From: Catajapyx aquilonaris
Lineage: Eukaryota
Direction: 5' to 3'
Length of the DNA stretch: 64,000 nt
Assembly: GCA_000934665.2 (NCBI GenBank)
Contig: JYFJ02001718.1
Location: 1 to 64,000, forward strand
Below the pieces are notes generated by a model. That model searched no databases. It saw nothing but the letters and a program-made list of their open reading frames with translations, and was not told the DNA's origin. Each line of letters starts with the position of its first letter. The stretch's first letter is position 1. A program made the translations under genes and the position numbers. Of the stretch, positions 8,001-53,836 are shown one piece after another.

Positions 8001-9018
8001 CAGGTGACCCAGCCCGGACCGGTGACCAGGTCGCTTCAGATTGACCTCTGGGACAATGGGGCTGGAGCTGACATTACCCGCAATGATGGTGTGTACTCCA
8101 GGTATTTGACCAACTACAACGGTCCTGGTCATTACAAGGTGAGATGTCGAGCCTGGAATGACGGTCATGCTACGATCAGCACTGACTTTTTGTCATCAGG
8201 AGTGCTTCCTAGGAATCCAGGTGTGCCAGTTAATTTATCATATAAATAATATTTCAACTGTTATAATAATTCCATCGCATAATTATTAGGACTTCTGAGT
8301 CCAAAGCAACGAATCTTCAACGGTACCAGCTTCACATCAGACGTGCATAACTTCACAAGGGAGTCAATTGCCGGATCCTTCAAGGTCAGCATCCAATTAA
8401 TGGGTTCACATGTATCGCGTCTAATTAACGTGAAATGTAGGTCAGCCGCGTAATGCCGCGTCGGGACACCCTGCCGCCGTACCCGGTAACGGACCTGACA
8501 GGTCGCATTGTGTCCAGGCCGATAGACAGCGTGACAGGAAAGAAGCGAAGGACATTTCAGCTCAGATGGACAGCACCTGGAGATGACCTGGACAAAGGAC
8601 GAGGTCTATTATTTTGTTTTATTGCTTTTATTATTAATTAATAACCTAATTAGGGTGTAATGCTAACGTGGCCATTCCAGCCAGCCATTACATGCTGAAA
8701 ATCGCGACCAACTTCAACGACCTTTCTGGCTCGGACTTCCTGACCCGAGTGACCACAGTGACCGAAAGAGACCTCCTAGAAGGCTCGTTAGTCCCATTGG
8801 TTTCGGGTCAGGTTCAAGAGGTCACACTGAATCCGAAACGGCTGGACCTGAAGGCCAACGTGGTGTTTTACTTCGCGATAAAGGCCATGGATGACTCCGG
8901 CAACATCAGCGACCTTTCCAACGTCATGTCAATGACCATTGCCAAGGCCAGGGACACTAAGAAGAAGAAGAAGAAGCAAAATAAGAACAGAAAGGGCAAG
9001 AAAAGCAAACGACTGTAA
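5015..9018 (+). CDS. CLCA-family protein 2 (multi-exon); no TM, polybasic C-terminus
   Basis: Signal peptide MLLFPLALLLSNWAAA then VVIRHNGYEDILVGISPQVKEDP; GCGQPG; HEWAHLRYGVFDEY (5690-5704); LWDNGAGADITRNDGVYSRY; WTAPGDDLDKG; ends ARDTKKKKKKQNKNRKGKKSKRL*; AATAAA about 20 nt after the stop. Confidence 0.92.
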
Positions 9019-18453: not shown

Positions 18454-21400
18454 ATGACCTCCAGAGGAAGGTTCCAGGCGTTGGTGTTGTTAGCCCTCTG
18501 TGGCCGGTGGTGTTCAGGCTCAGGGATTGTTCAGATCAAGAACAATGGATACGAAGGTGTGATTGTTGCAATATCGCCAAATGTGGATGAAGACCAAGCG
18601 ATCATCAGAGGAATTGAGGTAAGTTTTGCAGTGATTTGAGGCAATGATCTTCATACAAGGAAAATGGCAGATTATTATTCTCTCTAATAATCGGGTTTGA
18701 AATTAGGCTGCATCAGTTCATTCCTGGTAAGAACAGCCGTACGTATATTTCTGTAATATCTTATGCACATGCCATGAGTGGAATTATTATGTCAAGTTAA
18801 AGTTGGGTTCGTGAAGTTCTGATCTCATTCTGACGAAATGGGCGCACATATATCCTTCCTGTTCCTCCCTCGAGTTGGGGACATCCTCAGTTCCTGTTTA
18901 CAACCGACTTGATAAACTGAGTGTCAACATCAATGCGATTAAAGGCCATCTTTTAAAGCACAATTCACGTGATGCTGTTGGTTCCAAACTATAATTGTCT
19001 GTATGAAATGTAACGACCTGCTTCCATCATTTTGCTTCCAGACGTTGTTTACTGGCGCCAGCTCCTTTTTGTATCGAGCCACTCGCAATAGGGCCTTCTT
19101 CAGTGATATCAAGATATTAATTCCGTCAAACTGGACCAAAACCAGGGTCGATAAACACACGGATGATCTATACGAGGTATGACATAAATTACACGCTTGA
19201 TGGAAGAAACTGGAGCGTGATCTACTTATAAAAACCCTTATCCTTTTGGGCTTGACAGGATTCTCATTTTCGAATTGAGAACGAGGACATTGTTCCATAT
19301 ACTCAGCAAACCAGGGGATGCGGAGAGGAAGGTGATTTTGTACAAATGTCCAAAACTTTCCTGATGGATTTATCTGGAAAAACTACTGTGGACTATGGAA
19401 ATCCTGGTACGCAACTACTAAATAAATTATAGGAAACGCTTCTTCGTGCAAGTTGCTTTTTCAGAAAAGTAATTTTTACTGTTCTGACTTTTGTTATCAG
19501 CTAAGGTCATAGTTCATGAATGGGCACATTTACGTTACGGAGTATTTGACGAACATGGTGTACCTGGAGACTCCAAATATCCATTCATGTACCGAAAAGG
19601 CAGCGGAGAAGTTGGTGTCAACTCATGCTCAACTAAAACACTGAACGGAACTACCTGGTGAGAATAATAATACAAGCCTATTATAATATTATATTTAATA
19701 TTATAAAAAAATAATAATTTATTATCAGGGACCACACCACAGGAGATGATTGCAAAGTGGATTCGACTGGATTACCTGATAACAACTGCTTGTTTTACCC
19801 GAACCCGGACAACGACGTTCACACTTCGCTGATGTCATTTTCCTTTATCGAATCAGTAAGTCGACGGGAAACTGTGGGGAGAGAAAGTAAACCTCAAGTT
19901 TTCCGTTCGGGAAAACGCATAACCGAACTTTATATTTAGCACATTATTATGTAACATTTTTCCGGTACGCAGGTGGACACATTTTGCGACGACACCCCTG
20001 CAAACATGCACCAATGGGAGGCACCGAACAAGCACAATTTACTGTGCAATTACAGGAGCACTTGGGACGTCATAAGCAGCCATCAAGATTTCGCACGTGG
20101 CAACAACCGTCCTGCAAATATACAAAATGTCAGGCCCATATTCACCGTGGTTCAAGCAGACACAGCTAGGTTCGTCCTAGTGGCGGACATTTCCAGCAGC
20201 ATGAACGACGATGTGAGCTTTTAACATATGTCGAGAGTGTAATACGGACAATGCATGGAAATAAAACGCTTTTGTTTTGTTTGACTTGCAGCAAAAAATT
20301 GACCGGTTGTATAGAGCTGCACGGAGGTGGATCAAATATGAGCTTCCAGATGGTGTTTCATTGGGCATTGTCCAGTTCAGGTACGGATTTTTGTTAATAA
20401 CTGAAATTAATTTCATAAACTTCGATCGTGTCCTACAGTACATCAGCTCGGATTGTGTCTCCGATCATCAGAGTGGACAGCACCTCCAGAGAACTTCTGA
20501 TGAACATGGTACCGCACACAGCTGAAGGAAATACCTGCATAGGCTGTGCACTGGAACTGGCAAAGAGTGTAAGAACTTTTATCATTTTAAACTGCGTTTA
20601 TTATTAACAGTCGTTTAACACTTGTGATGCACTAGATGCTGAAAAATGGAGGAGTTATCTTGCTGATTAGCGACGGAATGGAAAACGAAGCGCCGTACAT
20701 GGACGACATAACTCCGTCCTATGTCGGTACCGGTGTACGAGTCGTCAGCGTTGCGTTCACGTAAGTACTTATCTCTTTTCAACAAACGTGGGCCTCAGAC
20801 TGTCCACAAAGTTACATAGTCCTCACATAGATGGAGCATTCTCCCTCTCTGCACACTCCCGCCACTCTATGCGGAGAAAATTGGTACTCTCACCTCGGAC
20901 AAACAAATGGAAAAAAGAGACAGAACCGATTTTTTATGTAATGGTTAGTCCTACGTACGCAGTCATATAATCTGGTTTAATTTGTGTAGTGACCAAGCTG
21001 ACCCTAAAATTGAACGACTGGCCGAACTTACCAATGGTAAGAGCTACTTTGTGCGTGATTACCAGGAACTATCACAGGCTCTGATTGGATCCGAGACATT
21101 CCAACCAGCTGGCCTACAACAAGAGAAAGAACTATCGGTAAGATTCAGGTTGCTGGAGCGAACAATCTCCATATTCTCCCCCCCATTTGCATAAATATGA
21201 AATTAATGCGGCATGAATTTCTCAGCTGTACGAGAAGCAGTTTACCGGTATCGGCTCTCAGTACGGAACCTTCGCAGTGGACGACACGACAGGACGAGAC
21301 TTCGTGTTTCAAGTGGACTACAGCGAAAGGGCGTACATCGGATCGTTGCGTCTGTACAGTCCGGCTGGGAGGACATACTCGGAGGCCGATGTCCACTGGG

Positions 21401-22956
21401 ACACAGATGGTCATGTTGGACAAATCAACGAGCCATTGGCACAGGTATGCAATCAGTGACGCGTAACATACTGTGTAACAATGCGATTAAAACATTTCCT
21501 GTACATCGTATAGGTGGGACCGTGGAGATTTACTCTTGGATTGAACCAAAGAGGAGACAAGAACTTTGCGGTTGTGACAGTGAAGACAAAAGCGAGGGAA
21601 CATACGACTGAGCCAATCTACACCAAGTGCTGGATAAGTTCAGGCAAGTCTTCCCTAATGTTTTTTTTGTGAATTAATTGTTATTAAAGTACTGCAAGTA
21701 ACCATGAAATTGCGCAGGTTCGTCTGCAGATCCGCGTAGCAAAAAGGTGGTCATTTTTGGAGAAGTTAAACAAGGAAATAAGCCAGTGATTGGAGCCCAT
21801 GTTCAGTAAGTATTTTTGATGTAAATACCAATATATTTGTTACTTTATGTCTTACTTATTTTGTTATTAGAGCTCTGGTGACACGTCCAGAGGAAGCCCC
21901 AGTGACAATAAAACTGCTGGACAACGGTGCAGGAGCTGACATAACTAGAAACGACGGTATATACTCTCGGTACTTCACTGCTTTTACTAAGAAAGGTCGC
22001 TACGGAGTTCAGTGTCAGGTTTGGAACGAAGGAACAGCGACTCTTGATATCGGATTTCACGGGTCAAAGGTCCTTCCGAGGAGGCCTGAACTGATCAACC
22101 AAATGACCTCTGGTGACAATGGCTCCAATAGTTCTCAGGAATTGGGAGTTTTTACCAGGCACGCAACTGCTGGATCATTCCAGGTGATTGACGTTCAATT
22201 TTGTTGTAGGTGGTGTTGCAAACCTTCAGCAGTCAGTCTCATGTATGGTAATTGCATATGTTTCTCCGTTTCAGATTACTGAAGATATTGATACTGATCA
22301 AGACACGATGCCCCCTAGTCGGATTACTGACCTTGACGTGAGAATGGTCAGTGTTAAGGAGAGATTCCAGTACAACTTGAATGGTGAGAGCATACAACAA
22401 ACACTGATGCTGTCCTGGACATCCACAGGCGACGATTATGACGAAGGAAGAGGTGAGCACTGTTTGTTATACAGTTGTTAGGCGCATGGTGACACTTGCC
22501 TTAATTGCAGCTGACACTCTGGTACTGAAAATGTCGACCAATATCAGCCAACTGAGATACTACTTCCACAATCCGTCGCCTGAATTGGTCGAAATCACCG
22601 ACAACTCTCTATGGGAAGGTTCGCTGTCACCAATGGAAGGAGGCACCGTCCATGCAGTCACACTTAACCCGGACGTTCTGAACATATCTGTCAACACAGA
22701 GTACTATTTTGCTCTGAAGGCTTACGACGAAACCAGACAAGAAAGTCCTTTGTCTAACATCCCCAGAGGTTGGATCCAATGGCAAAAAGAACTGCCGGAG
22801 TCCAAATCATTTTCAAGTCTGCACTACGTCATAATCATCGTGGCAGCGGTGTGTCTTCTCCTAATGATAGCGATCATCTTGCTTTTCTACATGATCAGAA
22901 ACAAACAGCAGTCTGACAGCCTGACTGTCCTACAGTACAAACCCAACAAAGTGTGA
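18454..22956 (+). CDS. CLCA-family protein 5 (multi-exon), canonical architecture with TM
   Basis: MTSRGRFQALVLLALCGRWCSG-SGIVQIKNNGYEGVIVAISPNVDED; HEWAHLRYGVFDEH (19515-19529); MIDAS FVLVADISSSM; LLDNGAGADITRNDGIYSRY; TM YVIIIVAAVCLLLMIAIILLFYMI; AATAAA at 22975. Confidence 0.93.
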
Positions 22957-23114
22957 CAATGTACCTACAAACCAAATAAATCCGCGATTTAAGACAGTGT
23001 GCTTTTTTCTTCCTTCAATCCGGCCGAACATAATACAGGATGTGACGCATTCTCAGCTGCCAAAGGGGGGAAAAATGTGTCAAGGAAGCCAGAAAGTCGT
23101 GGTCAGAAGTCGAC

Positions 23115-26100
23115 ATGTCAGGGCTGAGATTGGTGCTCATCATTTTGGTTGTCACTTGGAAGTGTTCTGCTATCGACATACGCGATGGAGGATATGTCGA
23201 TGTTGTGCTGGAAATTTCATCCGAAGTTAAGGAAGATCCAAAACTCATCGAGAGAATACAGGTACGTTGATGCAAATTTACTATGGCTCAATAATTGCAG
23301 AAATTAATTGCATTACATGTTAATGAGAGGCAATGTGCTGCTATTTATAAGACTAACAAACAGTGTTGTCTAACCAGCTGGATAAATCCTATCGTTCCAC
23401 ATATGAAAACGCTGATTTGATTAGCCTCTATAGGCGTAAAATTTTTAATTGAAGAACATATTAATTTGCAGATTTTTATTGTCGAATAGGAATTGCTGAC
23501 GAACACCAGTCACTTCCTATTCCAAGCTATGCGAGGTACCGCATATTTCAAGGAGGTTAAAATTGCGATTCCTTCCAACTGGAGCATGACAGCATCGGTT
23601 ACAGAATCACCAGACGTCGGGTACCGAGTAAGTTTACCATATTCATCAAGTCGAGTCGTTACACGTGTTATCTCTTGACATTGAAGAAAGGTCCCCCGGG
23701 GCCGAGTTATTTTCCTCACCATGCAGGAAAACCATAAAGATAAATAATCATCTTTTTATAGCATGCAGATGTACGGATTATTCAGGACTCCGATAGTTCC
23801 TTGGCTCCTTACACACGTCATACCAAAGGCTGTGGTGAATCTGGAGAATATATTGTCCTCGCCACTTCCTTCCTCCAAGGCCTGGCACATGACACTCCGA
23901 GACACTTCGGAGATCCAGGTATCACATGACAAGATCTATAACATCGCCCGGATATGTATAATAATGATGAATTATTTTGAAGGCAAGGTGATGGTTCACG
24001 AATGGGCTCACTTTCGGTACGGAGTTTTCGACGAGGTTGGTGACCCAAATGACCCAAGATTTCCTCCACATTATGTCAATGACCAAGGACAAGTGGTGCC
24101 TACTGTATGCTCTGTCCATGAAATGAAAGGGCGATATCTGGAAATGCTAACCGGACAGATGTTTGTACCTGACGAGGTGCAAAACACATCAGCGTCAATC
24201 ATGTCTTATCCATATTTCGCGACGTCGTTTTGCGATGACACGGACGAAAATCGGCACAACAAGGAAGCTCCCACGGCTCAGAACTATTTCTGCGGAAATC
24301 GGAGCGTCTGGGATGTAATCAGAGGCCACCCAGACTTTCAGGGCAAAAAGTGAGCCATTAATTTGAAAACCTTCACTTGGAAAATGATCAGAGTCACACA
24401 TTTTTATGCCAAGAATTTTTCTCTAGTAAAATGAGTGATCCCACCATAAATCACTTCATGACTGCTCTTCACTTGAATAGTGATTAAACATATCGGCGCT
24501 CAAATTTTACTGCATTTTTTTTTCTCCAGAAGCATTACTGTACATCCAGAACAGACCAGGTTCGTAATAGTAAAATCTCAAGCAAGTGATTCACCATGGC
24601 CAAGAAACAATGAACGTGACTTCACACTTAATGTGTTACCAAGAAATCCAGGTATGCAAAGCAGGAGGTGAGAGTACTTTATGCACATATGCTAACCATT
24701 AAATATTTGCATGGAAGCTCTACTATACAACAAATCGGACAGCACTGCGAAGAAATTGGTCGATATTCTGGAGGAAAATCGGCGAAGAGTGAGCTCTACA
24801 TAAATGACATATGCGTGCACCTTATTGTGTAGATTAATTTTTACAATTATTTTTTTATTTCAGCAATATGCAACTACAGTCCTTTCTGAGCTCGAATCTA
24901 GTACATTTACCGAGCAATTTACCGCAAATGAAATCTGGGAAAACGAGATGACAGAAAACACGATTCCTGCTGAGAGCGACATTGGCAATGCGAAAAGTGA
25001 AATTGCATCCAGCACTTGGGCCACACACAAAGGTGACGAGGTCACGCAAATTATGGCCAGAAACCAGACGCCAGCGAATTCCGAAACCAGCAGTGTCTGG
25101 GTAACGACCCCACAGTACATGTCGTTTAATGGTACCGACACAACGACTCCGGACCAGACAGACAGCAGCGTACAACATTACAATGATTCGGATTACACGG
25201 TGAGCATATCGGGTGTACATATGAAATATTCATGCCAAGTGCTGCCGGTAATAACTGACGTCATTGTTATTCAGGAAATAACTACACCAGTGGGTACTTC
25301 AATTATTACGACAGAGAGTGATGAGTCAGATGTTGAAGGCGGCACGTGGAAGTACAACACGACACACACGGTACAGCCGGTATATTATTGTTGGCGAGCA
25401 ATAAATATTGAGGCAGTTTACTGTTTCAGATGACACCTGATATTACAGCTCATGAAGCAACCACGGCTGAAACTATTCCTAGCACTACATGTCGACTAGA
25501 TCATGTGACAACAGTAATTTTACAATATAAATTAACCTTTTATATAATTTAATAAATGTAGTCTGATATTACAAAACATAACGATACCAAATTGTTTCAG
25601 GTACTACAAGAAACATCTACTGTTCAACTAGACCATCACACGATAGAGGTGATTACGAAATAATTGCAGCAATTTCAGCAATACCTTTCTACTGTATAAT
25701 TTTAGCAAGTGATGCAAACTGTAACATAACTCGTTTGTTGTTGATATGAAGGCTGGCTATAATTTCAGGTGAAACCCGACACAACCACTGAGGGTCACAC
25801 AACAGAGGTGATTATAAATGCCAAATGGTGCAATGGTTGACATTCTGATGGCGTCACACACTCTATAAAAAGAGATAAATCTGATCCTTTTTCCTTGGCT
25901 TGTCGTTTTGTGCAAGTCAACACTTGATAAAAGATTGGCCAAACTTATTTTCAGACACAGGAAACAACCACTGTTCACACGTTGTTGGAGCTGACAGTCA
26001 CCGATCTCAAGGCCTCTGTGTCAGCATGCTCCATGACCCACGCCGGAAGATGGGATTTTAAGATGACCCTGACCTGGACACTTCCAAAAACCATCAAGGG

Positions 26101-26527
26101 ACTCAAATATTACTTGCTGGTGTCGACAGAACCAACAATAATCATCAACAAATCGCCGAAAATGATCGTGAAAGAAAACGAAACCGGATTCGGACACATG
26201 CCCACAAACCACGTCCTGGTACTGGATTCCTCCAGGTTCGACCTGTCAGCAAACACGGATTATTTCGTCGCTGTACAAGCCGTGGATGACCACGGTGTGT
26301 TTGGAGGATTGTCCAACGTGGTCGAGGTCAACGTCAGGTGCAAAGATCAAGAAGACGATTCGGTTATAGACATTCTCAGCAAGTTCCAGGTGCTGATCAT
26401 CGTTGTTCTATCGGTGGTGCTGGTTCTTGGAATAATTTGCGCATTTCTTATGTGCTATCTGTATCGTAAAAAAGTGACAAGCATGAGAAAAGGCACTTAC
26501 AATGTGATGTTGCAAGAAATTGCATAG
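23115..26527 (+). CDS. CLCA-family protein 6: metalloprotease domain - Ser/Thr-rich stalk - FNIII-like - TM; lacks vWA and beta-rich domains
   Basis: MSGLRLVLIILVVTWKCSA-IDIRDGGYVDVVLEISSEVKEDP; HEWAHFRYGVFDE (23997-24011). Exons 24530-24651, 24718-24788, 24864-25199, 25275-25370, 25430-25513, 25601-25648, 25769-25807 and 25955-26527 join in frame with GT-AG sites. Final exon has VTDL..LTWT..YFVAVQAVDD..GLSNV and TM VLIIVVLSVVLVLGIICAFLMCYLY-RKK. Confidence 0.82.
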
Positions 26528-27228
26528 ATAACTGATACGGACTCCCAGAATTTAATATCTGAAGATACGACAGTCATGCCTTATAGACATTACGGCTCTT
26601 TATCGATTGACGTTATTTCCTACCAAGAATGTTATCTGTGCCAAAGTTCACAAAAGGAAAGGCTCAGAAATGAGGCAAAAAAAAATCGTAAACAGACACC
26701 TTTATTTTTGTAACTACATTTCCTGTTCCTGATTTGTGCTTTTTGTACGCTTTTGCATCTTTATCTCGTGTCAATGTAGCGATAACATTTATTTCAATTC
26801 GACCATTTCAACTTGCAAGCTTGTAGCTTTGCACTATAACTATGTAAACCGCAAGTACCGTATGCTCCATGTTTCCAAAGTACTTGACCTGTCTATTTTA
26901 AAAACAACCCAGACTAAACGACGCAGGTACACTTATCACAGTCTGATAAAACAAACGCTTCAACCAGCACGAAAAAATATGGGTGTTACCTCTCAGTAAA
27001 GACAATGGAGAAATAAACGCATCAGTTCAATAACACGCCTATACATTACGTCACCCATCACAGGGTGTCAATTTTCTTCGAGTTTGCGCCTTTGGAGTCT
27101 CGATCCTCTCTCGCTTTTTCCCACCCCATGTACTTCAACTACTCCCCTCCCGCCCCCACACCTGCTACCAGTCTATCTAGAGTTGAATATTAGCAGTTTG
27201 CTAGCCCGAGGCGTGAGAGGCGGCTGCA

Positions 27229-30200
27229 ATGCGCCTCTTGTTGCTGCGACCATGGCTGGCCCTGGTGGTGGCCACGTGTGTGTCCTCCGCCAGTATTACC
27301 ATCAAGGACAATGGATACGACAACTTGCTGGTTGCCATTTCTCCAAGTGTGCCCGAGGATTCGCACCTGTTGGACCTGATCAAGGTAAGAGGTCAATTGC
27401 ATTTAATAAAAAAAAGAGGCCGACCTTGAAAACAATGCAGGGTATTTGACAGTGCGACTATTTTTGCGTGTAGAGGACCTTATAGTGAGACGGGGGAGAC
27501 TATAATTAGAGCGGTTACGCAAGTTTTGTTTTTGGGACTTCCTACTTCAAAGGCACTTGTACGCATAGACTATGAATGGTTCAAGTAGTTGTTTTTTTTC
27601 GTTGCGAATTTTGTGCACCGGATTTGCAACATTGCCGCTGTTTTTATGAGTGCTTAAGAATGATGGTAAAAGCGGTTTCGGGGTCGTTCAACGCGCGACA
27701 TGTTCAGGTTTTCAGGTACGAGTGAAATTGCGAAAAAAGTTACACATTTTTTTTTGCAGAGTTTCAGTGCGGATGTGAGAGCAATTGAAATCTATTTGTG
27801 TGTGGAAAAATGTGTTTGCAATATTTAAAATTATGCAATTTCCAAATATGACATGTTCAGGTTTTCAGGCGCGAGGAGTGAAATTGCAATTTTTTTTGCA
27901 CGGTTTCAGTGCGGTTTTTAAAGCAATGGAAATCCCATTTTTATGTGGAAAATATCTTTGCAATATTAAAAATTATACAGTTTCCAAATTTGAGGTTATA
28001 CACTGAAGCGATTGCAAATTATGTAGGAATTGCCCGAAATGTTGCGAATATTTTTGTAATGAATCTGCGAAATGGATGACCTGAATATATAAGGTAATTC
28101 CCCGTTGGCGACGCGCCTGACTCAGCTCAGGTTCTTCGAAACCTTGAATAGCTTTCCGATTATCTGCAGCACACTACCGAGTATATTTAGAACAAAATTT
28201 GCAAAACAGGTTTGAACATCTAGGAGCAAAAATGTCTCATTACAATTATTATGCAAAAATCATTTCAGTTTTCATATTATTGCAATTGATTTTTTAAATT
28301 GGTCTAGTTATATTGATTCAAATAGTTTTCATAATATTTGAAAATTGTGTATGTCAGGAAAAGTGATTTATTACATTAATGTTTCAGACCAAACTGTCGC
28401 CATTAGAGGCTTCCATATATAAAATTAAAACCGCCTTCATACATCAATGTCTGTTTCAAGGCCCGTATTTCGAGCACCGTTTCGCAAACACGCGCCAAAA
28501 CGTCCTTGCACTTTATATTCGGTGTGACACGGCTTAAGCTTGACCTCGCATATAAACATGACACCTAATTTTTTTCTGTTGTTCACTCTCTTCCTCTCTG
28601 TGATGCAATAACAGGAGCTGATGGTGAACGCCAGCGAATCTTTGTTTACCCTCACACGTCGCCGGGTCTTCTTCAGGGACATCAAGATCCTGATCCCACC
28701 CACTTGGACCAAAATTAAGCCCGAAGCGTACAGTAGAGAGATATACGAGGTAAATCTCTCAAAAAGTACGGCGCACCTGACAAGGTCATACCTAAATTAA
28801 ATATTTTTTGGGGGGATGACAACTTCCGGAGCGCCATTTATTTTTTTGGGAAGACTTGTAGGAAATGGAAATACATTTTAATTAATTTATCAATATTATT
28901 AGGATGCAGAGATCCGAGTTGACCAGCCACATCTGAATGACCCGAATGACCTGCCCTACACGCAACAGCCTCGAGGTTGCGGAGAGCCTGGTGACTTCAT
29001 AAGACTTTCTTCTTCTTTCATACGCAAGGCCCACTCTCCACCGGACGCTGATTACAAAAACGCAGGTCAGGAGGTCACCACCTTCGATTCATTGTGCTTT
29101 TGTAGCCAAAAATAGGCACAATCGGCCATCTGCGACTTTAAGTACATTGTCAACAATTTCGCGGCTAATCGGAACCCATGGGGAGCGACCCGTTTCACTT
29201 TGGCCTTTTTTTTGTGTGTACTATTTGTTGTAAGCGATAAGATTACAAGCCTTTCGATAAGATGACATGAAAGGCTTTCCGATGCTGGTTACGTAAAAAG
29301 TGCATGGGGGTTGCAGACCACGTAATTTCCATAAACGAAATTGTGAAGGTCGCGGAATTTGTATTTCCGCAAGTTCTGTATAAGAAGGCGGAAGCTTTGG
29401 TGCATCACACGTGTACAGTTGACATCTAGGGCAAACAGAGATAGCAAAAAAATAATCATGATAACAATAGTTAATACTTTTGATATAACCATTAAAAGTA
29501 GCTGTTACTAATTATGGCACATGATAGGCAAGCTTGCTCTTTCTCTATACGTATCGAGTACGATCATATTCTTCATATGAGTAAAAGATGCGGAAGCTTG
29601 CTTCTTAAGTGTACAGAAGCTGTTATTATTTGGAGTAACTGTTGCTTGTTGAGCCGTGACGCATCCCAGTATAAATAGGCGTGTACTCATTAGCGCCTCT
29701 TGAAGTGTGAACTTAAATTGGGCTTGAAATAAGGGATGATTTTACGAGCAGTTTGCATATGTTATACACGCGTGCGTCTTATCTTACGATTAAGATTGCT
29801 GAATGTTTAATTACATCCTTGGATTCTGGTCTTAAATTATGTCACACGTTCCAGCCTTTTATCCTTGGATGTTTTTCAAGCAGCTACACCGATACGCAAT
29901 TTTGGGTTTTATGGCTTCTGTTTGGCCTTGCAGGTAAATCTTTGGTGCATGAATGGTCACACTTCCGTTGGGGCGTTTTTGAAGAGTATGGAATCTTCGA
30001 TGATGAACAACACCCTGGGTTTTACAAGTCAATGTCGTACGAGGTCGAACCAGAAGCTGAGTACGAAATTGTGCCAACCACATGCACCAAAGATAATCTA
30101 CGCGGAAAGCTCTAGTAAGTACTCTTCAATTATTTTTTAGCTAACGACGGTATTACTACATGTTGAATATTTACATTGAAGCGACGCAATCACTTACGAG

Positions 30201-33126
30201 ACATGCAAAATGGATCCGGTGACCAATCTTCCGGATAAGAACTGCTGGTTTCAACCTGATGAGACTGTTAACGTACCTTCTTCCATCATGTCGTACACCC
30301 AGTTGGACTCGGTATGTACCCAGCTGTACCATCACATCAGTAACTGCTGATTCATACAATTCTACAGGAGAACTACTTTTGCGACGACACTGACGAACGC
30401 AAGCACAACACCATCGCACCGACCAAACACAATGCCCGTTGCGGCCACAAGAGCGTCTGGGAGGTGATCATGAAGCATTCAGACTTTGCCAACAACAGCA
30501 ACCCGCCGATGGACACGTCGTCGGCACCGGAAAAGCCAAAGTTCAGGATCATCCAGACTGAGAAGCCCAGGTTCGTACTAGTGGCCGACACCTCGATGAG
30601 CATGAACGAGCACAAGAAGATGGACCGGTTGGCACAGGCTGCAAGAAGGTGGATCAAGTACGAGCTGTTGGACGGTGTGGTGTTGGGGATTGTGTCCTTC
30701 AGTAACTATGCGACCATCGTGGCTGAGATGACCACTGTGACTAAGGACACCAGGCAGTTGCTGATGGACAAAGTTCCTCGTGCTACTGACGATTGGACCT
30801 GCATCGGATGCGGATTGAGGAAAGCACAGAGTATGTTGGTCCAAGGCGGTACGATCGTGCTGATCACAGACGGAATCGAGAACAAGAAGCCGAACATCGA
30901 GGATGTTCAGGAAGAGCTGATCCTGTCCAACATAAGGGTCATCACCATTGCATACAGCGACGATGCTGACCCGAAGATCAACATGCTAGCGGTGGCCACT
31001 CAGGGAAAGAGCTTCTTCGTCAACGACTTCCAAGGACTGTCCGATGCATTCAAGGCATCTGAGACGTACCAGGCTGCGTTGGCGTCCAAAGATCGCGAGG
31101 CTATGGTAAGTTGTGCGGTACTTCCAGGAGAAAATGCATGTTTACGGCCTCACGATTTGGTCGTGCGACCGAGACTCAAATCGTGAGGGCGTAAACAGAC
31201 CTTTAGGTCTACCAGACGTGAAGCTCAAAATAGCCTTCCAAGAGAGGTGCTCCTATCTCTATCTCACGAAACTGTCTTGGGAGGCTATTTTGAACTTCAG
31301 GTCTGCTGGAAGTGACTGTATAGTTCTATAGTATACAAGTGATGCCAATAATGTGTCTTACCACAGCTATTCGAGACATACTACAAGTCACCGAACGGCA
31401 ACCACTTCGGAAGCTTCTCTGTCGACTTCAGCACCGGTCGAGACTTCGTGTTTCAAATAGACTACAGTCGAATCACGTACGTCAAGTCGTTCGACCTAGT
31501 GTCGCCAACAAAGAGACATTACTTCTTAAAGGACGCGGAGTGGGACAGACCAGGACATGTGTATTTCATCAGGTTGCCTATGGCAGAGGTACAGCTTTTA
31601 GCAATAATGCTTCGTGAACATTGTCTTAACATTGTTGACAAATCCGCAGGTTGGTACGTGGCAGTACAGCGTACAGTTCGAGGTAAAAGACCACCTGGAC
31701 TTCGCTGTCGTGTCGGTCAAAGCCAAACGGAGAGCACTGGATACCGAGCCAATACAGACCATGTGTTCTATCAGCACGGGTGCCCAGGACATCAACCCTG
31801 AGGACGAAAAGGTGGTCATATTCGCCAAGGTCAGCCAGGGGTCCAGGCCCGTGCTTGGCGCCAAAGTCAGGTGAGTAACGTACAGCCATACCGAGATAAT
31901 CGTAGTACATGACAATGCAATTGCAGGGCTGAAGTGACCCGACCTGGCAACAGGACAGAACCGGTTATAATTCCGCTTTGGGACAACGGTGTTGGAGCAG
32001 ATGTCACCCGCAATGACGGTATATACTCGAGGTACTTTACGTCGTACGGCGACGAAGGTTACTACGCAGTTTCATGTCAAGTATGGAGCGACGGAGCTGC
32101 CTTTGTCGGCGGAGGATTCTTAGGAGCCAGAATGCTCCCAATTGTACCAGGTCAGTTTTATGATTCGTATTAATGTATGAAAAATTATAACTTGTCCAAA
32201 TTATAGCCAAAGCCGCTCCTCAACCAAAGATTCAGCTATCAAACTTCACCCGGTACGCACCTGCAGGAAGCTTCAGGGTGATGAACCACACTCAGGAAAA
32301 GGACATTTTACCACCAAGTCGCATCGCAGATCTAGTCGCAAACGAAGTCGTCTTGGAAGACAAGCAAACTGCATTTAGATTGGAATGGACCGCATCTGGA
32401 TCTGATCTGGATCAAGGAACGGGTTAGTTTTAGGCTGATCTGATGACGGCTGATCTTTTCTATGCGACGAAATAAGTGGCGGGAGTCAAGTTCAGAGAGC
32501 GCGGCCAAATGGGTGGCCAACGAACGTTATTGTGGCTTTGCCACGGACTACCTATTCGGACACGCTCATTGAACTACCTCCATCCCCGACTCTTGCCACC
32601 GTCTTTGTCGCGTAGGAAAGATCAACCGAGTTTTGATATATTTGGCAAATTTTAAGCTCTAATTACATGTATGTTTGTCCACACAGCCGAGTCACACTTG
32701 CTGCACTATGCACCTAGCCAGCATTCGCTTCTAAACTCATTCAATGTCCAAAGAGAGGTGTCCGAAATGGATTTGACCGAAGGATCACTCGTCCCGTTGG
32801 AATCTGGACAGAAACAGTTGGTCACACTGAACTCGACGTCGCTTCACTTCGAACCAAACGTGATGTACTACTTCGCAATAAAAGCAGTGGACGACAGCAA
32901 CCTTGAGAGCGAGATGTCCAACGTGGCTTCGGCCGTAAGACGTCCCAAGTTGTTGCATCTGGTATCGGTCCAGGAGGATGTGACGACAGACAAGGCCATG
33001 GTGTTGACCATCGTCCTGGTCGCGGTCGGGACCATGTTGTTGCTTGTTATGATTGTAAGCGTGGCCGTATACTTTTACAAGAGCCCGCGAAGGCGATTCT
33101 GGAGGGTTCCAACAAACGACGCTTAA
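27229..33126 (+). CDS. CLCA-family protein 7 (multi-exon), canonical architecture with TM; vWA in one large exon
   Basis: MRLLLLRPWLALVVATCVSS-ASITIKDNGYDNLLVAISPSVPED; HEWSHFRWGVFEEY (29948-29962); MIDAS FVLVADTSMSM; CIGCGL; LWDNGVGADVTRNDGIYSRY; TM MVLTIVLVAVGTMLLLVMIVSVAVYFY. Confidence 0.93.
27698..27993. repeat. Two-copy ~150-bp direct repeat in CLCA-7 intron 1
   Basis: Units start GACATGTTCAGGTTTTCAGG at 27698 and 27850 and share GTTTCAGTGCGG...TTTGCAATATT.AAAATTAT..TTTCCAAAT. Confidence 0.8.
31139..31305. repeat. Two adjacent fold-back hairpins in a CLCA-7 intron
   Basis: 31139-31197 TGTTTACGGCCTCACGATTTG...CAAATCGTGAGGGCGTAAACA; 31213-31305 CAGACGTGAAGCTCAAAATAGCCTTCCAAGAGAG...CTGTCTTGGGAGGCTATTTTGAACTTCAGGTCTG. 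Confidence 0.8.
32447..32628. mobile_element. Palindromic MITE-like element in last CLCA-7 intron
   Basis: CGGCTGATCTTTTCTATGCGACGAAATAAGTGGCGGGAGTC...AGTTCAGAGAGCG pairs with CGCTCATTGAACT...GACTCTTGCCACCGTCTTTGTCGCGTAGGAAAGATCAACCG. Confidence 0.7.
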
Positions 33127-33228: not shown

Positions 33229-33911
33229 CAATGTAAACAAATGCCCTGATTGGCTCATAGTCCAAAATGGCCGATGGCCGCAGTTTGATTGGCTGGAAAT
33301 CCAACGTGACCGTATTGTAAACAAATGCCCTGATTGGCTCAGAGTGCAAAATGGCCGATGGGCGTTGTCTGATTGGCTGGTAATCCAACATGACCGTATT
33401 GTAAACAAATGCTCTGATTGGCTCAGAGTCCAAAATGGCCGATGGCCGCTGTTTGATTGGTTGGAAATCCAACATGACCATATTGTAAACAAAGGCCCTG
33501 ATTGGCTCATAGTCCAAAATGGCCGATGGCCGCTGTTTGATTGGCTGGTAATCCAACATGACCGTATTGTAAACAAATGCCCTGATTGGCTCATAGTCCA
33601 AAATGGCCGATGGCCGTTGTCTGATTGGCTGGTAATCCAACACGACCGTATTGTAAACACATGCCCTGATTGGCTCATAGTCCAAAATGGCCGAAGGCCG
33701 TTGTCTGATTGGCTGGTAATCCAACATGGCCGTATTGTAAACAAATGCCCTGATTGGCTCATAGTCCAAAATGGCCGATGGCCGTTGTCTGATTGGCTGG
33801 TAATCCAACATGACCGTATTGTAAACAAATTCCATGATTGGCTCATAGTCCAAAATGGCCGATGGCCGTTGTCTGATTGGCTGGAAATCCAACATGACCG
33901 TATTGTAAACA
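33229..33911. repeat. 84-bp minisatellite, 8 full copies plus partial
   Basis: Unit TATTGTAAACAAATGCCCTGATTGGCTCATAGTCCAAAATGGCCGATGGCCGTTGTCTGATTGGCTGGTAATCCAACATGACCG with register 33229, 33313, 33397, 33481, 33565, 33649, 33733, 33817, 33901. Confidence 0.97.
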
Positions 33912-34237
33912 GACGCTCTCATTGGGCCTGGACCAGTGCGGGATTTCCGCGTGTCCAATGTGCGATGCGTCGATGAGGCACCTCCTTTCATGTGGCAAGC
34001 TGCGATCATGGTAACACGTAAATCAACGTATGCTTCAACTCCGCTAACAGATGCGTGATTGGCCAGATTACTTTGTATCGTATCCTCAGACGTCTTTTTA
34101 CAAGTCAGTTATACTATCCTTTATGGCCATAAGGCCAATATAGCCTACATTTTTCAACTACTGTACAATAGGAACTCAAATTTAAATCTGGCATAATTAT
34201 GGCCTACTCGTACCTCTAGAGAAGTATTTTTTTAAAT

Positions 34238-34923: not shown

Positions 34924-36321
34924 ATGGCGCGTTCTTTTGTGAAGTTCACTCCTCACAAAGTGAGCAAAATCAGGTGGAGACCGGCCTCAGAAGAAAGGTT
35001 CCTGGGATCAGACGTGTTCCTGACAGGATCATGGGGAAGCAAGGTTCGAAGAAGAAAAAAAAAACTGGGCATAAAATAAGCAGGGTTCAAAATGAAGGAA
35101 GGAAAACAACAATGCACATGTTCTAATGTTCCTTTTTTTATCCAGGCGAATGAGCTGAAGTTATGGCAGTTCCAGCAGGAGGATTTGGCAGGAAAAGGGT
35201 TCAGACCGGTCGGTTTGGACACTGTTACGCAGCAGGCTGATTTCATGGACATAAAGTTCATAGACGGGGATCGCTTCTTGACCGCTAGTTCGGACGGAAG
35301 TGTACAGTTGTACGCAATCAAGTCGGCCGGACTGCCCCTTAACGCATCATGGAAGTTCAAGTCGCTGCGAACATGGACAGGGGTTCACAAAAAGTACCAA
35401 CAGTCTCTCCGAAGCCGTTTGTACAATACTAATTAACAAACTTTCAGGTACAAACAGCTGCCGTGCACTGCGGTGACTAATTTCGAGGAGGAAATTGCAA
35501 CTGTTGGGGAAGACGGCAGAATAGTGTTTCTCAATCCGACGAGACAAGAGCCATTGCGGTCCATCGGTAATGAGCATAGTTCGTTAATTACTGGGGCTAG
35601 ACTATATAATTATATTTACAGATAAAGGCGAGAGCGGTTGGCTGACATGCGTTTGCTACTTGAAGCACAACGAGTTGGTGGTGGCCAACTTGCGCGGTCA
35701 GCTCAAAGTGTATGACCTGCTCACCGCATGCGATAAGCCCTCTGCAATATTCACCTACGCTGAAGACAAGGTACTGCGGTAATTAACCTGTTAACACCAA
35801 TTACATCCGAAATCCTTGCAGATGGTGGGCATAACCTGCCTTGCACAGCATCCAACCCAGCCCCACATTGTTGCGACAGGATCGGAGGAAGGGACACTGG
35901 GCATATGGGACGTCCGGAAGGAGAAGTATCCTGTCACATTACTCAAGGGACATACATCAGAAGGTACACTGTACAGTTCATCCGCAATATGTTGGATAAT
36001 TGACCCCCTTTTTCTGCAGTCCGTGAGCTGAAGTTCCATCCGTTGAACCCGGACCACCTGTTCACTTGCTCATTCGGAGGGGAGACCTGGCAGTGGAATG
36101 GCGCACCCAAGTCTAGAGCCGGCGGCACATCACAGCCGCTGGAGGCACCCGTTGAAACACTCTGGCTCAGCGGGAGTCTGGCTCAAGGACGTGTTGAAAC
36201 CAGGGCTGCACTGCCTGACTCGCACTTGGCCATCAACACACTGGACATATGCCAGTCCAGTCTCATTTGCGGCGGAGACAATGCAGCCATATTCCTCTCG
36301 CATGATCTAGAAGTGTATTGA
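34924..36321 (+). CDS. Nup43: Nucleoporin Nup43 (WD40 repeat), 6 coding exons
   Basis: N-terminus MARSFVKFTPHKVSKIRWRP...FLTGSW matches the Nup43 KISKxRWRP...F.TGSW signature; TVGEDGRI, HPTQPHIVATGSEEG, FHPLNPDHLFTCS, LICGGDNAAIF. Confidence 0.9.
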
Positions 36322-37283: not shown

Positions 37284-39367
37284 ATGCCGAAGAACAAGGG
37301 TGAGCATAAATTGCTATAAATATGCTATTGTTTCGAAAGCCTACTTTTGTAGGCTTGGAACATATGGTTCTGTTGGGGTGAAGCTAATGTATGAGTGTAA
37401 ACTGGGTTATTTTATCTCCTTTATAGGTAAGGGAGGTAAAAACAGGAGAAGGGGGAAGAACGAGAATGAGACGGAGAAGCGTGAGCTTGTCTTCAAGGAA
37501 GATGGACAGGGTAGGTTTGCGGTGCAGGTTTGACGAGAGAGTGCTGTTGATTAACGGCCAACTTTGTATTTTCAGAATATGCACAAGTGACCAAGATGCT
37601 TGGAAATGGCCGCCTGGAAGCAATGTGCTTTGATGGAATTAAGCGTCTCTGCCACATCCGAGGGAAGCTGCGAAAGAAGGTAATGTTGCGTACAGTCGAA
37701 ATTGAACAACGACACATTTTCTGCCTTGTTGTGCCCAACTATTATAGTAAGGGTAAGCTAACATATGGGTTTTGGGAGGTGGCTTATGTCCTTGGCAACC
37801 ATAATTAGCCCCGCCCCCTACCAGTCGACCAATCAGGATTCGATTTCAAAGGAGATGTTCTAAAACCTCAAGAATGAGATGAGCTTGTTTACACTAGAGC
37901 AGTTGGTAACCTACAGTACTACATGAGGCGCAAACATTAGATTTTTGCGTCTCTATCTGTTTGGGGCGTTGCCAAGGCTGGCGGCCATTTTGAAGTGTGT
38001 GGAACGCCAACGAGGTATAAATAGGGTACAGGCAAAAATAGGGTCTGCCATCTTTGATTCGCCGTGTTCTTGCCTTTCCTGCCATGTAGCTGCCATGGCC
38101 GCCACAATCACCAAAGATGGCGGACCCTATTTTTGCCTGTACCCTATTTATACCTCGTTGGCGTTCCACACACTTCAAAATGGCCGCCAGCCTGGGCAAC
38201 GTCCCAAACAGAGACGCGAACATCGAAGGCGCCGACAGAAGTTTGCGCCTCTTATGTAGTATGTAGTAGCTCCCTGGTAGGGACAAGCTAACTTAAGAGT
38301 TTTGGGAGGTGGCTTGTGTCATTGGCAACCGTAATTAGCCCCTCCCCCTACCAGTTGACCAATCAGGATTTGATTTCGAAGGAGATGGGCTTTATGTCCT
38401 AAAGCTTCAAGAATGAGATGAGTTTGTTTACACTAATGCAATTGATAACCCAGTAGGGGGGGGGAATAATTCCCTACCAATTGTTCTAAATTCCATACAA
38501 AAAACTCAGCAGGGGGCGTGGCTAATTATGGTTGCCAAGGACACAAGCCACCTCCCAATACCCATGTTAGCTTACCCCTACTATAGAGATTGCGAGGGAT
38601 TGTTTTTTCGTTTTTTAATAATAATATTTGGGTCGTGCAATGGAAGGCGACAACGATGCAATATTCATGCAAGGTTCACTGCTCTCTCCCGTGTGGTGTT
38701 GCAATGCATTTTATGCAATAGCTGAGATAAAAATAGAGCTACTGCACATCTGCCAATTGATATAAAAAGGATACTAAAGAAGTGTTGTCATTAGTGTATT
38801 TCCTCACATTCATGGCTGATGGTTTTTCTGTTCTGAAAAAGTGGCATTCAGCGTTTGATTAAAATGGAACTGAAGCTAGGTAACGATCACAGTTATAAGA
38901 AATACGAAGCTGTTTGAAATGCTGCTCTACGTACACACGACACAATGTGACTTTGTTTTGTTGCTTCAAAGGTGTGGATCAACCAAGGCGACATAATCTT
39001 GGTTGGACTCCGAGACTACCAGGACACCAAGGCAGATGTTATCCTCAAATACACGCCAGATGAGGCCCGCAACCTGAAGTCATACGGAGAGTTCCCAGAT
39101 TCCGGTAATGATCATTGCAATACTAAAAATTGGTGTCACACTTGGGCCAAAACTAATCCCTAATCTCTTTTCAGTGAAAATCAACGAGACTGTCACTTTC
39201 GTGGACGATGGCATGGATGATGACATTGAGTTTGACGAGATGAGCGAAGAGAGCGATGAAAACATTGATGACGTAAGTATTGCAGCATATTAGTAAACGT
39301 TCCTGAGACTTGGGTGATTATGGCAGCATGCTGATTACTTATTTGATTTTTTCCATTTCAGATCTAG
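37284..39367 (+). CDS. eIF1A: Eukaryotic translation initiation factor 1A; exons 37284-37299, 37427-37510, 37576-37679, 38972-39104, 39175-39272, 39362-39367
   Basis: [110 protein letters not shown]...DENIDDI*; all GT-AG. Confidence 0.98.
37743..38585. mobile_element. MITE with ~75-bp TIRs and internal direct repeat, in eIF1A intron 3
   Basis: TATAGTAAGGGTAAGCTAACATATGGGTTTTGGGAGGTGGCTTATGTCCTTGGCAACCATAATTAGCC versus GGCTAATTATGGTTGCCAAGGACACAAGCCACCTCCCAATACCCATGTTAGCTTACCCCTACTATA; left ~170 bp repeated directly at ~38277-38455. Confidence 0.85.
37917..38261. mobile_element. Nested long palindromic (fold-back) element
   Basis: Arms 37956-38056 and 38112-38212 are reverse complements with about 3 mismatches; outer TACTACAT/ATGTAGTA and GAGGCGCAAAC/GTTTGCGCCTC also pair. 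Confidence 0.9.
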
Positions 39368-46842: not shown

Positions 46843-47844
46843 TACGTGAAGGTCTGCGACTTGTGCGGATGACTCATTCATGTAGAATAATGTAAAGATT
46901 CAGGAGGCGCAAATCACTTTCTTCGGTGTAGACTGCTGTGTATACACCTGCATTAAGAAGCAGTGCCTTTAATATTTACGAAGTAGTGCGTAGAATTATG
47001 GATACAACTGTTGGTCACTTCGTCGTCATCATCATCTTTATCAATAAAATCAGTGTGGGTGCAAAATTGTACAAGTTTGCATGGCACTTGTTCCCATGAA
47101 CTAGAAAACTATCGTAGGCCTACTTCGTAAGCCACATCATGGGTTAACGTGGTTTGATGGCCTGCACTGTTTAAGAAGTTATTACGTGCTGACGCAATAC
47201 ATTATTACAGCTAATTTAATATGAAATTGCCCGGCAAATATAATCCAGAGAAATCATTATGAATATTTGATAAGAATATAGTCCCATCAGAAACTACATA
47301 AACTGAAATGAAGTTTCTCTTGGGGACAGTATATAATGCTATCCGAAGTAAATAATTCTGAAATGTACGAAATTGGTTTACAAATAATTAGAAAAACTTA
47401 TAAATTACAGAGTAACCTAAGAACAATATTGAAGAATGACAAAAAAAATAATAATAATTGGGAAATTGTAAAATAATTATTTGAATAATCTGAAACTGAT
47501 GCCTGAGGTAGACCTACTTACCGAATGTAATAAAATGATCTTGCACTATTGCAGATGACAACAGTAGTGCACATATAAGAGCTGTAACTGAGACTGAGGC
47601 TGCACCCGTGTAATCATGCAACCTTCACTCTTTTTCCAACATATTCTTTTCTCCCTCAAAAAAGCTTTCAATGAAGTAAAACCGTTCATTAATTGGATCT
47701 CCTGTTGATTTCTTAAGTCATGTGGAGCAAAATAGACTATTTCGTCATTTTCTTTTCATGATGCGATGGGTACCTTCATATCGGTTATGGGAATATGTCA
47801 CTTTGCCATATCTAACAGACGGTGAAACATGTGTTTCTAACGAA

Positions 47845-53600: not shown

Positions 53601-53784
53601 TACGTCAAGGTCTGCGACTTGTGCGGATGACTCGTTCATGTAGAATAATGTAAATATTCTGGAGGCGCAAATCACTTTCTTCGGTGTTGACTGCTGTGTA
53701 TACACCTGCATTAAGAAGCAGTGCCTTTAATATCTATGAAGCAGTACGTAGAATTACGGATACAACTGTTGGTCGCTGTGTCGT

Positions 53785-53785
<1 letters not shown>

Positions 53786-53836
<51 letters not shown>
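53786..53836. repeat. (ATC)17 microsatellite
   Basis: Direct reading; the paralogous site at ~47028 has only about 3 copies. Confidence 0.95.

Follow-up and report, generated by a model that had tools for sequence, protein, structure and literature searches.

A CLCA gene of Catajapyx aquilonaris in which the protease domain appears joined to the putative cleavage loop: a candidate membrane-tethered protease

Introduction

Can a CLCA protein exist without the domains that separate its protease from its cleavage loop? This question is raised by a stretch of 64,000 nucleotides from Catajapyx aquilonaris (contig JYFJ02001718.1, positions 1 to 64,000, forward strand), which we refer to as the window: its first 34 kb carry seven tandem CLCA-like genes, all on the + strand, located by tblastn with the model of CLCA-6 and with CLCAs of Ciona (P0001) and Dermacentor (P0002), in agreement with the Pfam CLCA_N matches on pieces of open reading frames (ORFs). 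The sixth gene of the array, CLCA-6 (23115-26527, +), is the subject of this work. An earlier reading of the sequence alone, the original prediction, had described it as a CLCA metalloprotease on a mucin-like stalk, with the VWA domain and the beta-rich core deleted.

CLCAs are of interest in mucus disease and in the regulation of chloride channels, and the roles of their domains are still debated. The consulted part of Lenart 2013 describes one typical architecture for metazoan CLCAs, and the available part of a cryo-EM preprint on human CLCA1 (10.1101/2025.10.18.683246, hereafter “the CLCA1 preprint”) proposes a model where a C-terminal loop blocks the protease, while VWA, the beta-sheet-rich domain (BSR) and the inhibitory domain (ID) tune the block. 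Our analysis is presented from the missing domains, through the exon where the two sides of the gap meet, to the parts of the protein that are kept; the reading that we favour, as somewhat more likely than not, is that CLCA-6 is a real, expressed gene for a 725-residue type I membrane protein, i.e. a membrane-tethered protease inhibited by its own loop.

Results

The middle domains are missing from the locus

All six paralogs have the full architecture, i.e. the protease or metallohydrolase (MH) domain, VWA, BSR, ID, the FnIII-like domain and, where modelled, a transmembrane (TM) helix, according to spliced alignments to Ciona CLCA and to the RNA-supported model of CLCA-5. These alignments have been made with a purpose-written protein-to-genome aligner, guided by Ciona CLCA or by the CLCA-5 model. 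The paralogs align to the VWA (residues 300-500) and to the BSR/ID (residues 590-830) of Ciona CLCA, whereas the alignment of CLCA-6 covers residues 25-295 only: the Ciona-guided alignment recovers exons 1-4 (to 24349) except for the donor of exon 2 (23627), which is recovered by the CLCA-5-guided alignment, and it finds nothing credible in CLCA-6 past 24349.

The other searches agree. The Pfam search for VWA in 19 ORFs of the locus has given no match, the VWA of CLCA-7 scoring 49.4 bits, and the seven minus-strand ORFs match no Pfam family. When the six paralog models are compared with positions 22960-27300 by tblastn (E<=10), E-values below 0.001 are confined to the MH exons and the FnIII part; a match of 11 residues around VLPRNP to CLCA-2 appears in the lenient search with E=0.35, and it is the sole match of the BSR and ID domains. 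By Pfam, tblastn and spliced alignment, neither strand of the locus holds a VWA, BSR or ID remnant beyond the stretches RFVIV and VLPRNP, and RFVIV is followed by KSQAS at the place where the DxSxS of MIDAS (the adhesion site of VWA that depends on a metal ion) is expected. Judged from the sequence of the locus, the middle of the protein (about 420 residues in terms of CLCA-5) is missing from the DNA itself, rather than merely skipped, as the original prediction had proposed for the VWA and the beta-rich core.

The MIDAS motif DxSxS is present in CLCA-3, -4, -5 and -7 and degenerate in CLCA-2 (MDMAGKS, 6440-6467), and metal binding by VWA is thus already being lost in a further member of the array.

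A fusion exon bears the two edges of the gap

Exon 5 reads ...EQTRFVIVKSQASDS...FTLNVLPRNP, and both of its ends find their counterparts in the paralogs, at exons that lie far apart. Its start is in phase 2, as in CLCA-2, -3 and -4 where their first VWA exon begins (the intron follows ...DFxGG), and its TRFVIV matches the PRFVLV of the paralogs, i.e. the first VWA strand. Its end is in phase 1, within the codon of Ala311, directly after a motif that is rare in the array: in the + frames of the first 36 kb, only two sites fit [LIVM]P[RK][NDS]P, one at 8205 (in CLCA-2) and the other at 24636, and both are followed by G|GT. The motif of CLCA-2 lies in exon 7997-8220, beyond the VWA and beta-rich exons; ...DFLSSGVLPRNP in CLCA-2 and ...RMLPIVP in CLCA-7 each end the last ID exon, with a phase-1 intron at the same spot as in exon 5. 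The exon after the motif ends in phase 0 in both CLCA-2 and CLCA-6, the phases of exon 6 being those of CLCA-2 exon 8290-8384, and the exon-table comparison counts four intron positions of CLCA-6 that are common to paralogs in both place and phase.

The phase-2 start and the phase-1 end of exon 5 would be explained exactly by an in-frame deletion that runs from the first VWA exon to the last ID exon, and such an exon-to-exon deletion is the simplest reading of its origin. The original prediction had placed the start of this exon at the linker before VWA and its end at FTLNVLPRNP, had noted that paralogs reach this motif and its intron only past the VWA and beta-rich exons, and had proposed that an internal deletion joined the protease domain to the putative cleavage loop; the exon model and the exon-table comparison agree with the first two points, and the phases, together with the likeness to the LPRxx|ALY of relatives, speak for the third.

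The positions of introns vary among the paralogs: in CLCA-7, a single exon of 738 nucleotides (30368-31105) carries both the last part of MH and all of VWA, and CLCA-5 (19973-20212) and CLCA-7 have no intron after DFxGG. This variation shows that introns are being actively lost within one tandem array.

Across the junction of exons 5 and 6, CLCA-6 reads VLPRNP310|A311-L-L-Y, the phase-1 intron falling in the codon of the putative P1' alanine. The cleavage sites of relatives are similar: LVLPRNL|ALYVPG (P0141), KQNR|ALYIPG (P0115) and LALPRSR|ALYIPG (Xenopus CLCA1-like, P0159-P0162). Mammalian CLCA2 orthologs have SIPGSH|AMYVPG with the alanine at 709, which fits the self-cleavage of human CLCA2 at residue 708 that is stated in the consulted part of PMC10669480. 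For human CLCA1, the available text of the CLCA1 preprint describes an extension between β6 and β7 of the ID that reaches into the active site, where the cut falls between G694 and A695, with A695 and L696 remaining in the S1' and S2' pockets and blocking the enzyme. Of the 119 ID C-terminal segments, six contain the pattern Phi-P-[RK]-x-x-[AG]-[LM], as against none of the 67 VWA N-terminal segments. The case for the tail of exon 5 as the P side of a putative cleavage loop is good but not proven.

Exon 6 ends with the tribasic ENRRR (24774-24788), about 24 residues past the putative self-cleavage site; a second processing site of the convertase type at this position is speculative.

The catalytic core of the protease domain is kept and its contact surfaces are reduced

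The zinc motif of CLCA-6, HEWAHFRYGVFDEV, keeps the His, Glu, His, Gly, Asp and Glu of the family motif HExxHxxxGxxDEY, the catalytic residues being H153-E154-x-x-H157, D164 and E165. In an alignment of 13 MH domains (CLCA-6, five paralogs and seven database CLCAs), the SIMSY, TVCS, FCDD...RHN, GCGE and FCGNRSVWDVI of CLCA-6 align with all 12 other sequences. In human CLCA1, such motifs form the catalytic zinc site, the Cys/Cys/His ligands of a second zinc and the disulfide from the αC helix to the βIV-βV loop, according to the part of the CLCA1 preprint that we have used, equivalence to the human numbering being judged by motif pattern.

What CLCA-6 lacks is a thumb segment of about 19 residues bearing two cysteines, in the C-terminal subdomain of MH, which is present in 12 of the 12 other aligned sequences; exon 4 corresponds to three paralog exons fused, with two MH introns missing. 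As described in the accessible part of the CLCA1 preprint, the disulfide-stabilised thumb loop of human CLCA1 clamps FnIII-l, and the D778/D779 loop of FnIII-l binds calcium and touches the ID. The paralog counterpart of the latter loop, GDDxDxG, is also absent from the FnIII-like domain of CLCA-6. By this comparison, the surfaces that contact the lost or displaced domains are gone and the catalytic core is kept; of the “intact” Cys-rich HEWAH domain in the original prediction, the HEWAH (23997-24011) and the zinc ligands stand, but the Cys-Cys thumb segment is missing in CLCA-6 alone of the 13 sequences.

In a tree of 20 MH domains (three rows of fewer than 200 residues excluded), CLCA-2, -3, -4, -5 and -7 form a clade with a Shimodaira-Hasegawa-like approximate likelihood ratio test (SH-aLRT) value of 91, and CLCA-6 is placed outside this clade with weak support, its branch measuring 0.79 substitutions per site. 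On this tree, CLCA-6 is an old or fast-evolving copy and no fresh duplicate, and the retention of its zinc and structural residues over such a branch argues for long purifying selection.

The C-terminal half: stalk, FnIII-like domain and membrane anchor

Between the putative cleavage loop and the FnIII-like domain lies a stretch of 210 residues (335-544) with 24% Thr, 9% Ser, 10% Glu and 16% Glu+Asp, and with four N-x-S/T sites, much as in the original prediction, where about 200 residues rich in Ser, Thr and Glu with such sites had been proposed. This stalk is probably glycosylated and disordered. Exons 10 and 11 have similar splice-site contexts, a donor region of 20 nucleotides being 90% identical, which suggests a local exon duplication. 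The term “mucin-like” that had been applied to the stalk is loose: Ser+Thr amount to 33% over 210 residues, but Pro makes up only 4%, Tandem Repeats Finder (TRF) reports no tandem repeat in the stalk, and only the two mini-exons look duplicated.

Exon 12 matches the FnIII parts of the paralogs in tblastn, with E-values of 6e-5 (CLCA-2), 2e-4 (CLCA-5), 0.001, 0.004 and 0.017, and the Pfam fn3 profile scores 17.5 bits on it, below the cut-off. The AlphaFold2 model of this last exon is a sandwich of seven strands with a long helix (pLDDT 69.9), and Foldseek relates it to FN3 domains in the Protein Data Bank (E 4e-4 to 9e-3, TMq 0.24-0.38), the top match being POMGNT2, which presumably carries an FN3 domain. 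Hydropathy places the TM helix at about residues 679-703, and the short tail that follows contains GTYNVM, a YxxM/Yxx-hydrophobic motif. The proposed series of FnIII-like domain, TM helix and GTYNVM tail has thus been recovered, with the calcium loop (GDDxD) missing.

RNA evidence and the revised gene model

The CLCA-6 model has been built by reading the three frames and joining GT-AG sites, and revised with RNA contigs. It comprises 12 exons and 725 codons (Table 1), from the ATG at 23115 to the stop at 26525-26527, with no stop or frameshift in between and with canonical GT-AG at all splice sites; the introns of the window are GT-AG and short (44-260 nucleotides, with a few longer).

The RNA evidence comes from a public run (X1) whose kind is unlabelled and which holds one third of the sampled words of the locus; we take it as RNA-derived because ten of the 11 listed joints of its contigs skip GT..AG introns. 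On CLCA-6, these contigs lie within 24864-26635 and confirm three introns (25199/25275, 25370/25430 and 25513/25601), with low depth: the 3' half of the gene is spliced and expressed. One contig starts at 24864 with eight loose letters that equal 24781-24788, are unique in 22001-27500 and are followed by GT, which places a donor at 24788 and thus reveals exon 6 (71 nucleotides), absent from the layout of the original prediction. Of the three AG acceptors checked by hand (exon starts 24718, 24743 and 24753), 24718 alone is in frame with exon 5, which ends in phase 1. With exon 6 added and exon 7 starting at 24864, the frame proves open throughout, as had been claimed. An acceptor of exon 7 at 24880, used in the first model, has been rejected, the RNA contigs placing it at 24864.

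One X1 contig joins exons of CLCA-7 (27382/28613, depth 20) and then passes from 28750 to 21264, “goes back 7487” into an exon of CLCA-5, with a loose end of 255 letters at 21323; it is probably a chimera or derives from an unseen paralog elsewhere in the genome.

At the 5' side, the stop of the CLCA-5 model is at 22954-22956, with AATAAA at about 22975, and the ATG of CLCA-6 follows only about 155 nucleotides beyond this stop; a pyrimidine tract with AG lies near 23038. The close spacing of the two genes might reflect a very short promoter, polycistronic transcription or trans-splicing.

Comparison with relatives and known systems

A HMMER search with exon 4 of CLCA-6 has returned 571 matches, of which we have examined the best 150; with P0002 added, these 151 proteins have been screened with profiles built from the domains of Ciona CLCA. 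VWA is found in 125 of them. The remaining 26 are 11 fragments of fewer than 410 residues, two proteins with no MH match, ten with BSR matches, of which only P0070 and P0122 leave too little space for a VWA, and three decapod proteins (P0003, P0014 and P0018) with a VWA-like stretch that has no MIDAS; Pfam concurs in 14 of the 14 VWA-negatives tested and in four of four positive controls. An MH domain leading to FnIII with VWA, BSR and ID jointly absent is found in none of these 151 relatives, and the literature searched yielded no metazoan CLCA lacking VWA and BSR. The claim that this is not a described architecture holds for the joint loss, and has to be narrowed for VWA, since predicted VWA-less isoforms (e.g. 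Tachypleus P0070) are present in databases; two mammalian CLCA2 entries labelled as isoforms have CLCA_N only. From these comparisons of sequence, CLCA-6 appears to be a variant architecture of the known CLCA family, with the joint loss of VWA, BSR and ID newly seen.

The closest counterpart in overall plan is human CLCA2 with its mammalian orthologs (P0166, P0168, P0170), which share with CLCA-6 the signal peptide, the HExxH MH domain, a cleavage motif followed by A-[LM]-Y, the FnIII-like domain, a single C-terminal TM helix and a short tail. CLCA2 has VWA, BSR and ID between protease and cleavage site and a short linker from the cleavage site to FnIII, whereas CLCA-6 has none of the three domains and carries 210 Thr-rich residues between the cleavage motif and FnIII. 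Human CLCA1, the “CLCAsin” metzincin, shares by motif HExxHxxxGxxDE, the Met-turn, the Cys/Cys/His of the second zinc, a pair of the Cys125-Cys267 type and A-L at P1'-P2'; in the portion of the CLCA1 preprint at hand, it is secreted and compact, with fragments held together by the ID sandwich, unlike CLCA-6, which is predicted to be membrane-anchored, without VWA, BSR, the ID body, the thumb disulfide loop and the FnIII calcium loop.

Partial likenesses occur in arthropod sequences. The Tachypleus tridentatus CLCA1-like isoform X2 (P0070, 862 residues) has Pfam CLCA_N only, keeps the first VWA strand (RIVISFDSSGNM) with the rest of VWA gone, and has FnIII, a TM helix and a Ser-rich linker. This isoform is a predicted splice product, the gene also giving rise to an X1 form with VWA (P0154), and it keeps BSR, ID and MIDAS, whereas the loss in CLCA-6 is in the genome and includes BSR and ID. 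Among the best 150 of the 571 matches, the decapod proteins P0014 (Panulirus), P0003 (Penaeus) and P0018 (Homarus) match exon 4 with 82, 135 (top match) and 79 bits and with 44%, 43% and 43% identity, which is too low for orthologs of CLCA-6. Like CLCA-6, they have Pfam CLCA_N only, no MIDAS and ...T-x-H-K-x-x-Q-x-R ahead of β1; P0014 and P0018 have a VLPRDP motif, and P0014 has a Thr-rich tract ahead of the hydrophobic C-terminus. Unlike CLCA-6, they keep a VWA-like region of about 200 residues, ID motifs and the thumb cysteines, and the Thr-rich tract lies after FnIII. A word-indexed homolog search with exon 4 has returned two distant matches, and searches of solved structures with the ID exon of CLCA-5 and with exon 4 of CLCA-6 have returned no CLCA entry.

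Outside the family, ADAMs and MT-MMPs also carry an extracellular zinc protease head on a type I membrane stalk and are kept latent by an intramolecular segment; they belong to other metzincin families with an N-terminal pro-domain switch, and are not known to share sequence kinship with CLCA beyond the zincin core.

Feature positions and neighbouring genes

The exons of CLCA-6 are listed in Table 1.

Table 1. Exons of the revised CLCA-6 model, with their content and the evidence for them.
Feature	Position	Strand	Content	Evidence
Exon 1	23115..23261	+	Start codon, signal peptide (~residues 1-19), start of CLCA_N/MH	Hydrophobic N-terminus; weak match to Pfam CLCA profile positions 1-30; donor Ciona-guided
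Exon 2	23490..23627	+	MH domain	Pfam PF08434 27.5 bits (ORF 23490-23675; cut-off 25.6); acceptor Ciona-guided, donor CLCA-5-guided
Exon 3	23762..23918	+	MH domain; ends in phase 1 after GDP	Intron common to all five modelled paralogs
Exon 4	23983..24349	+	HEWAH 23997-24011, GVFDE, Met-turn SIMSY, FCDD...RHN, FCGNRSVWDVI	Pfam PF08434 84.5 bits, E 1.1e-23 (ORF 23748-24350)
Exon 5 (fusion exon)	24530..24651	+	Last MH strand SITVH; VWA β1 remnant RFVIV 24558-24572; W...DFTLN; VLPRNP 24633-24650	
Exon 6	24718..24788	+	A311-LLYNKSDSTAKKLVDILEENRRR, P' side of putative cleavage/inhibitory loop	Donor RNA-supported, acceptor inferred
Exon 7	24864..25199	+	Start of stalk, Thr/Ser/Glu-rich	RNA contig 24864-25198, joins 25275
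Exon 8	25275..25370	+	Stalk	RNA joints 25199/25275 and 25370/25430
Exon 9	25430..25513	+	Stalk	RNA joints 25370/25430 and 25513/25601
Exon 10	25601..25648	+	Stalk mini-exon	Acceptor from RNA joint 25513/25601, donor inferred
Exon 11	25769..25807	+	Stalk mini-exon, likely duplicate of exon 10	Frame and GT-AG sites; no RNA joint listed
Exon 12	25955..26527	+	End of stalk, FnIII-like domain ~25982-26335, TM helix ~26384-26458, 21-residue tail with YNVM 26498-26509, stop	RNA 25965-26207 and 26267-26635

Just past the last CLCA gene, a tandem repeat is located at 33232-33925 (period 84 nucleotides, 8.3 copies, 93% matches); several of its frames are open, on both strands. Downstream of the array, the window holds a WD40-repeat piece (35795-36028), an eIF-1A piece (37551-37805) and, on the minus strand (41705-61193), genes for fatty-acid elongases (ELO, PF01151) that form another tandem array.

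Discussion

If CLCA-6 is a membrane-tethered, loop-inhibited protease, its domain order would be the signal peptide, an MH domain with a trimmed thumb, a relic of about 40 residues (VWA β1 and VLPRNP310|A311-L-L-Y), the stalk of about 210 residues, the FnIII-like domain, the TM helix and the short tail. One in-frame genomic deletion, with one end within the first VWA exon and the other within the last ID exon, would have removed the VWA, the BSR and the ID sandwich; the Thr-rich mini-exons would have been inserted later between cleavage loop and FnIII, and the contact surfaces, now useless, would have been lost after the deletion. The zinc protease head would then be borne at the tip of the stalk, with A311 and L312 of its own loop filling the S1' and S2' pockets as A695 and L696 do in human CLCA1, and the loop would probably be cut there. 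With the ID sandwich that joins the two CLCA1 fragments gone, the head would be held by the loop alone and could be shed as a soluble protease of about 33 kDa. MIDAS-dependent functions of VWA and any VWA-based regulation would be impossible in such a protein. We infer the single transcript of exons 1-12, the catalysis, the cleavage, the shedding and the glycosylation.

Several observations weigh against this reading. No X1 contig lies on 23142-24811, so that exons 2-5 and the link of the 5' and 3' parts rest on frame, phase and homology, the blank being evidence neither way; the joints of exons 10/11 and 11/12 are not among the listed joints; and an out-of-frame ATG is found at 23075, 40 nucleotides upstream of the start codon. 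On residues 270-360, the hidden Markov model (HMM) profile of the VWA N-terminus scores about 0 bits and so does that of the ID C-terminus, and the assignment of the loop therefore rests on the short motif and on the intron position. The putative P1 residue, P310, is unlike that of other CLCAs, whose P1 residues are basic or small and P2 residues small polar in the consulted part of the CLCA1 preprint; the putative P2 of CLCA-6 is Asn. The Tyr of DEY is a Val, the same position being H, M or I in the paralogs and in Ciona. The scarcity of Pro in the stalk, together with the TRF result of no tandem repeat there, belongs here as well, as does the failure to find an ortholog, the search having returned relatives of which the best among the 571 matches is 43% identical. 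Lastly, human CLCA1 truncated at 302 or 478 is unstable, as far as the CLCA1 preprint text at hand describes it, so the MH head may be short-lived where the ID is missing.

This instability of human MH-only forms would also suit a decaying relic, i.e. a gene crippled by the deletion and still transcribed, whose product has no selected function; the loss of three domains, of a conserved cysteine pair and of the FnIII calcium loop, the long branch outside the clade of its neighbours, the low RNA depth and the bare 5' half point the same way. We consider this explanation unlikely, though not negligible: a relic would hardly be expected to keep an open frame of 725 codons across 12 exons with canonical splice sites, or to retain zinc ligands, Met-turn and all of the remaining structural cysteines over about 0.79 substitutions per site; besides, the losses are limited to surfaces that touch missing domains, which looks adaptive rather than like random decay, and new in-frame mini-exons have been gained.

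The start of RNA coverage at 24864, plus eight letters of exon 6, could alternatively mark two transcription units, i.e. a truncated secreted protease, made of exons 1-4 or 1-5, next to a stalk-FnIII-TM gene of its own, the two being in the same frame by chance. This is improbable: exon 6 is spliced to exon 7 and its acceptor at 24718 keeps the frame and phase of exon 5, read-through past the donor of exon 5 meets a stop after six codons, and CLCA-5 has a similarly 3'-biased coverage in X1. A type I membrane protein needs a start codon with a signal peptide after it; the 3' half itself has none, and this argues for one transcript from exon 1.

A comparably poor chance is given to the tail of exon 5 being a diverged α1-β2 of VWA (cf. 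...YELPRNMLLSIIEF in CLCA-2), which would leave the MH domain with a VWA stump and no self-cleavage or inhibitory loop. Neither profile scores significantly, and a collinear MAFFT alignment does place the tail on α1-β2, where CLCA-2 reads YELPRNMLL, with LPRN; we have rejected this placement on the basis of the intron position and phase and of the motif distribution. The intron after VLPRNP has the position and phase of the ID-end intron of CLCA-2 and CLCA-7 (VLPRNP/MLPIVP), but the paralogs have their VWA intron 7-8 codons later, in phase 2; the hexapeptide is identical to the ID-end motif of CLCA-2, and LPRxx followed by A-L is seen at the cleavage sites of relatives and in none of the 67 VWA N-termini.

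Finally, an assembly artefact, in which VWA and BSR exons present in the animal were dropped, merits hardly any credence: the junction in exon 5 has no independent read support, but protein identity among the paralogs is only about 35-57%, far too low for collapse, the junction is in frame inside a normal exon with good splice sites, and the flank from 24781 on matches RNA contigs.

Were CLCA-6 a relic, its interest would be confined to gene-family turnover in a tandem array. As a membrane-tethered protease with its own loop, FnIII and anchor, it would be a natural test of the loop model of CLCA inhibition, i.e. of whether the loop alone inhibits, whether it is cut and whether the head is stable, and it would document a multi-domain protein rebuilt by one in-frame deletion, the loss of contact surfaces and the insertion of a stalk. 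A more specific proposal, which we put forward only tentatively, is that CLCA-6 is a natural minimal CLCAsin: a latent head with its own blocking and cut loop on a glycosylated membrane stalk, released on demand. If this is true, the loop alone would suffice for CLCA autoinhibition, without the ID body, VWA or BSR, and CLCA-6 would offer a small, naturally stable MH-only construct, unlike the failed truncations of human CLCA1, whose instability is what would make a naturally trimmed version useful.

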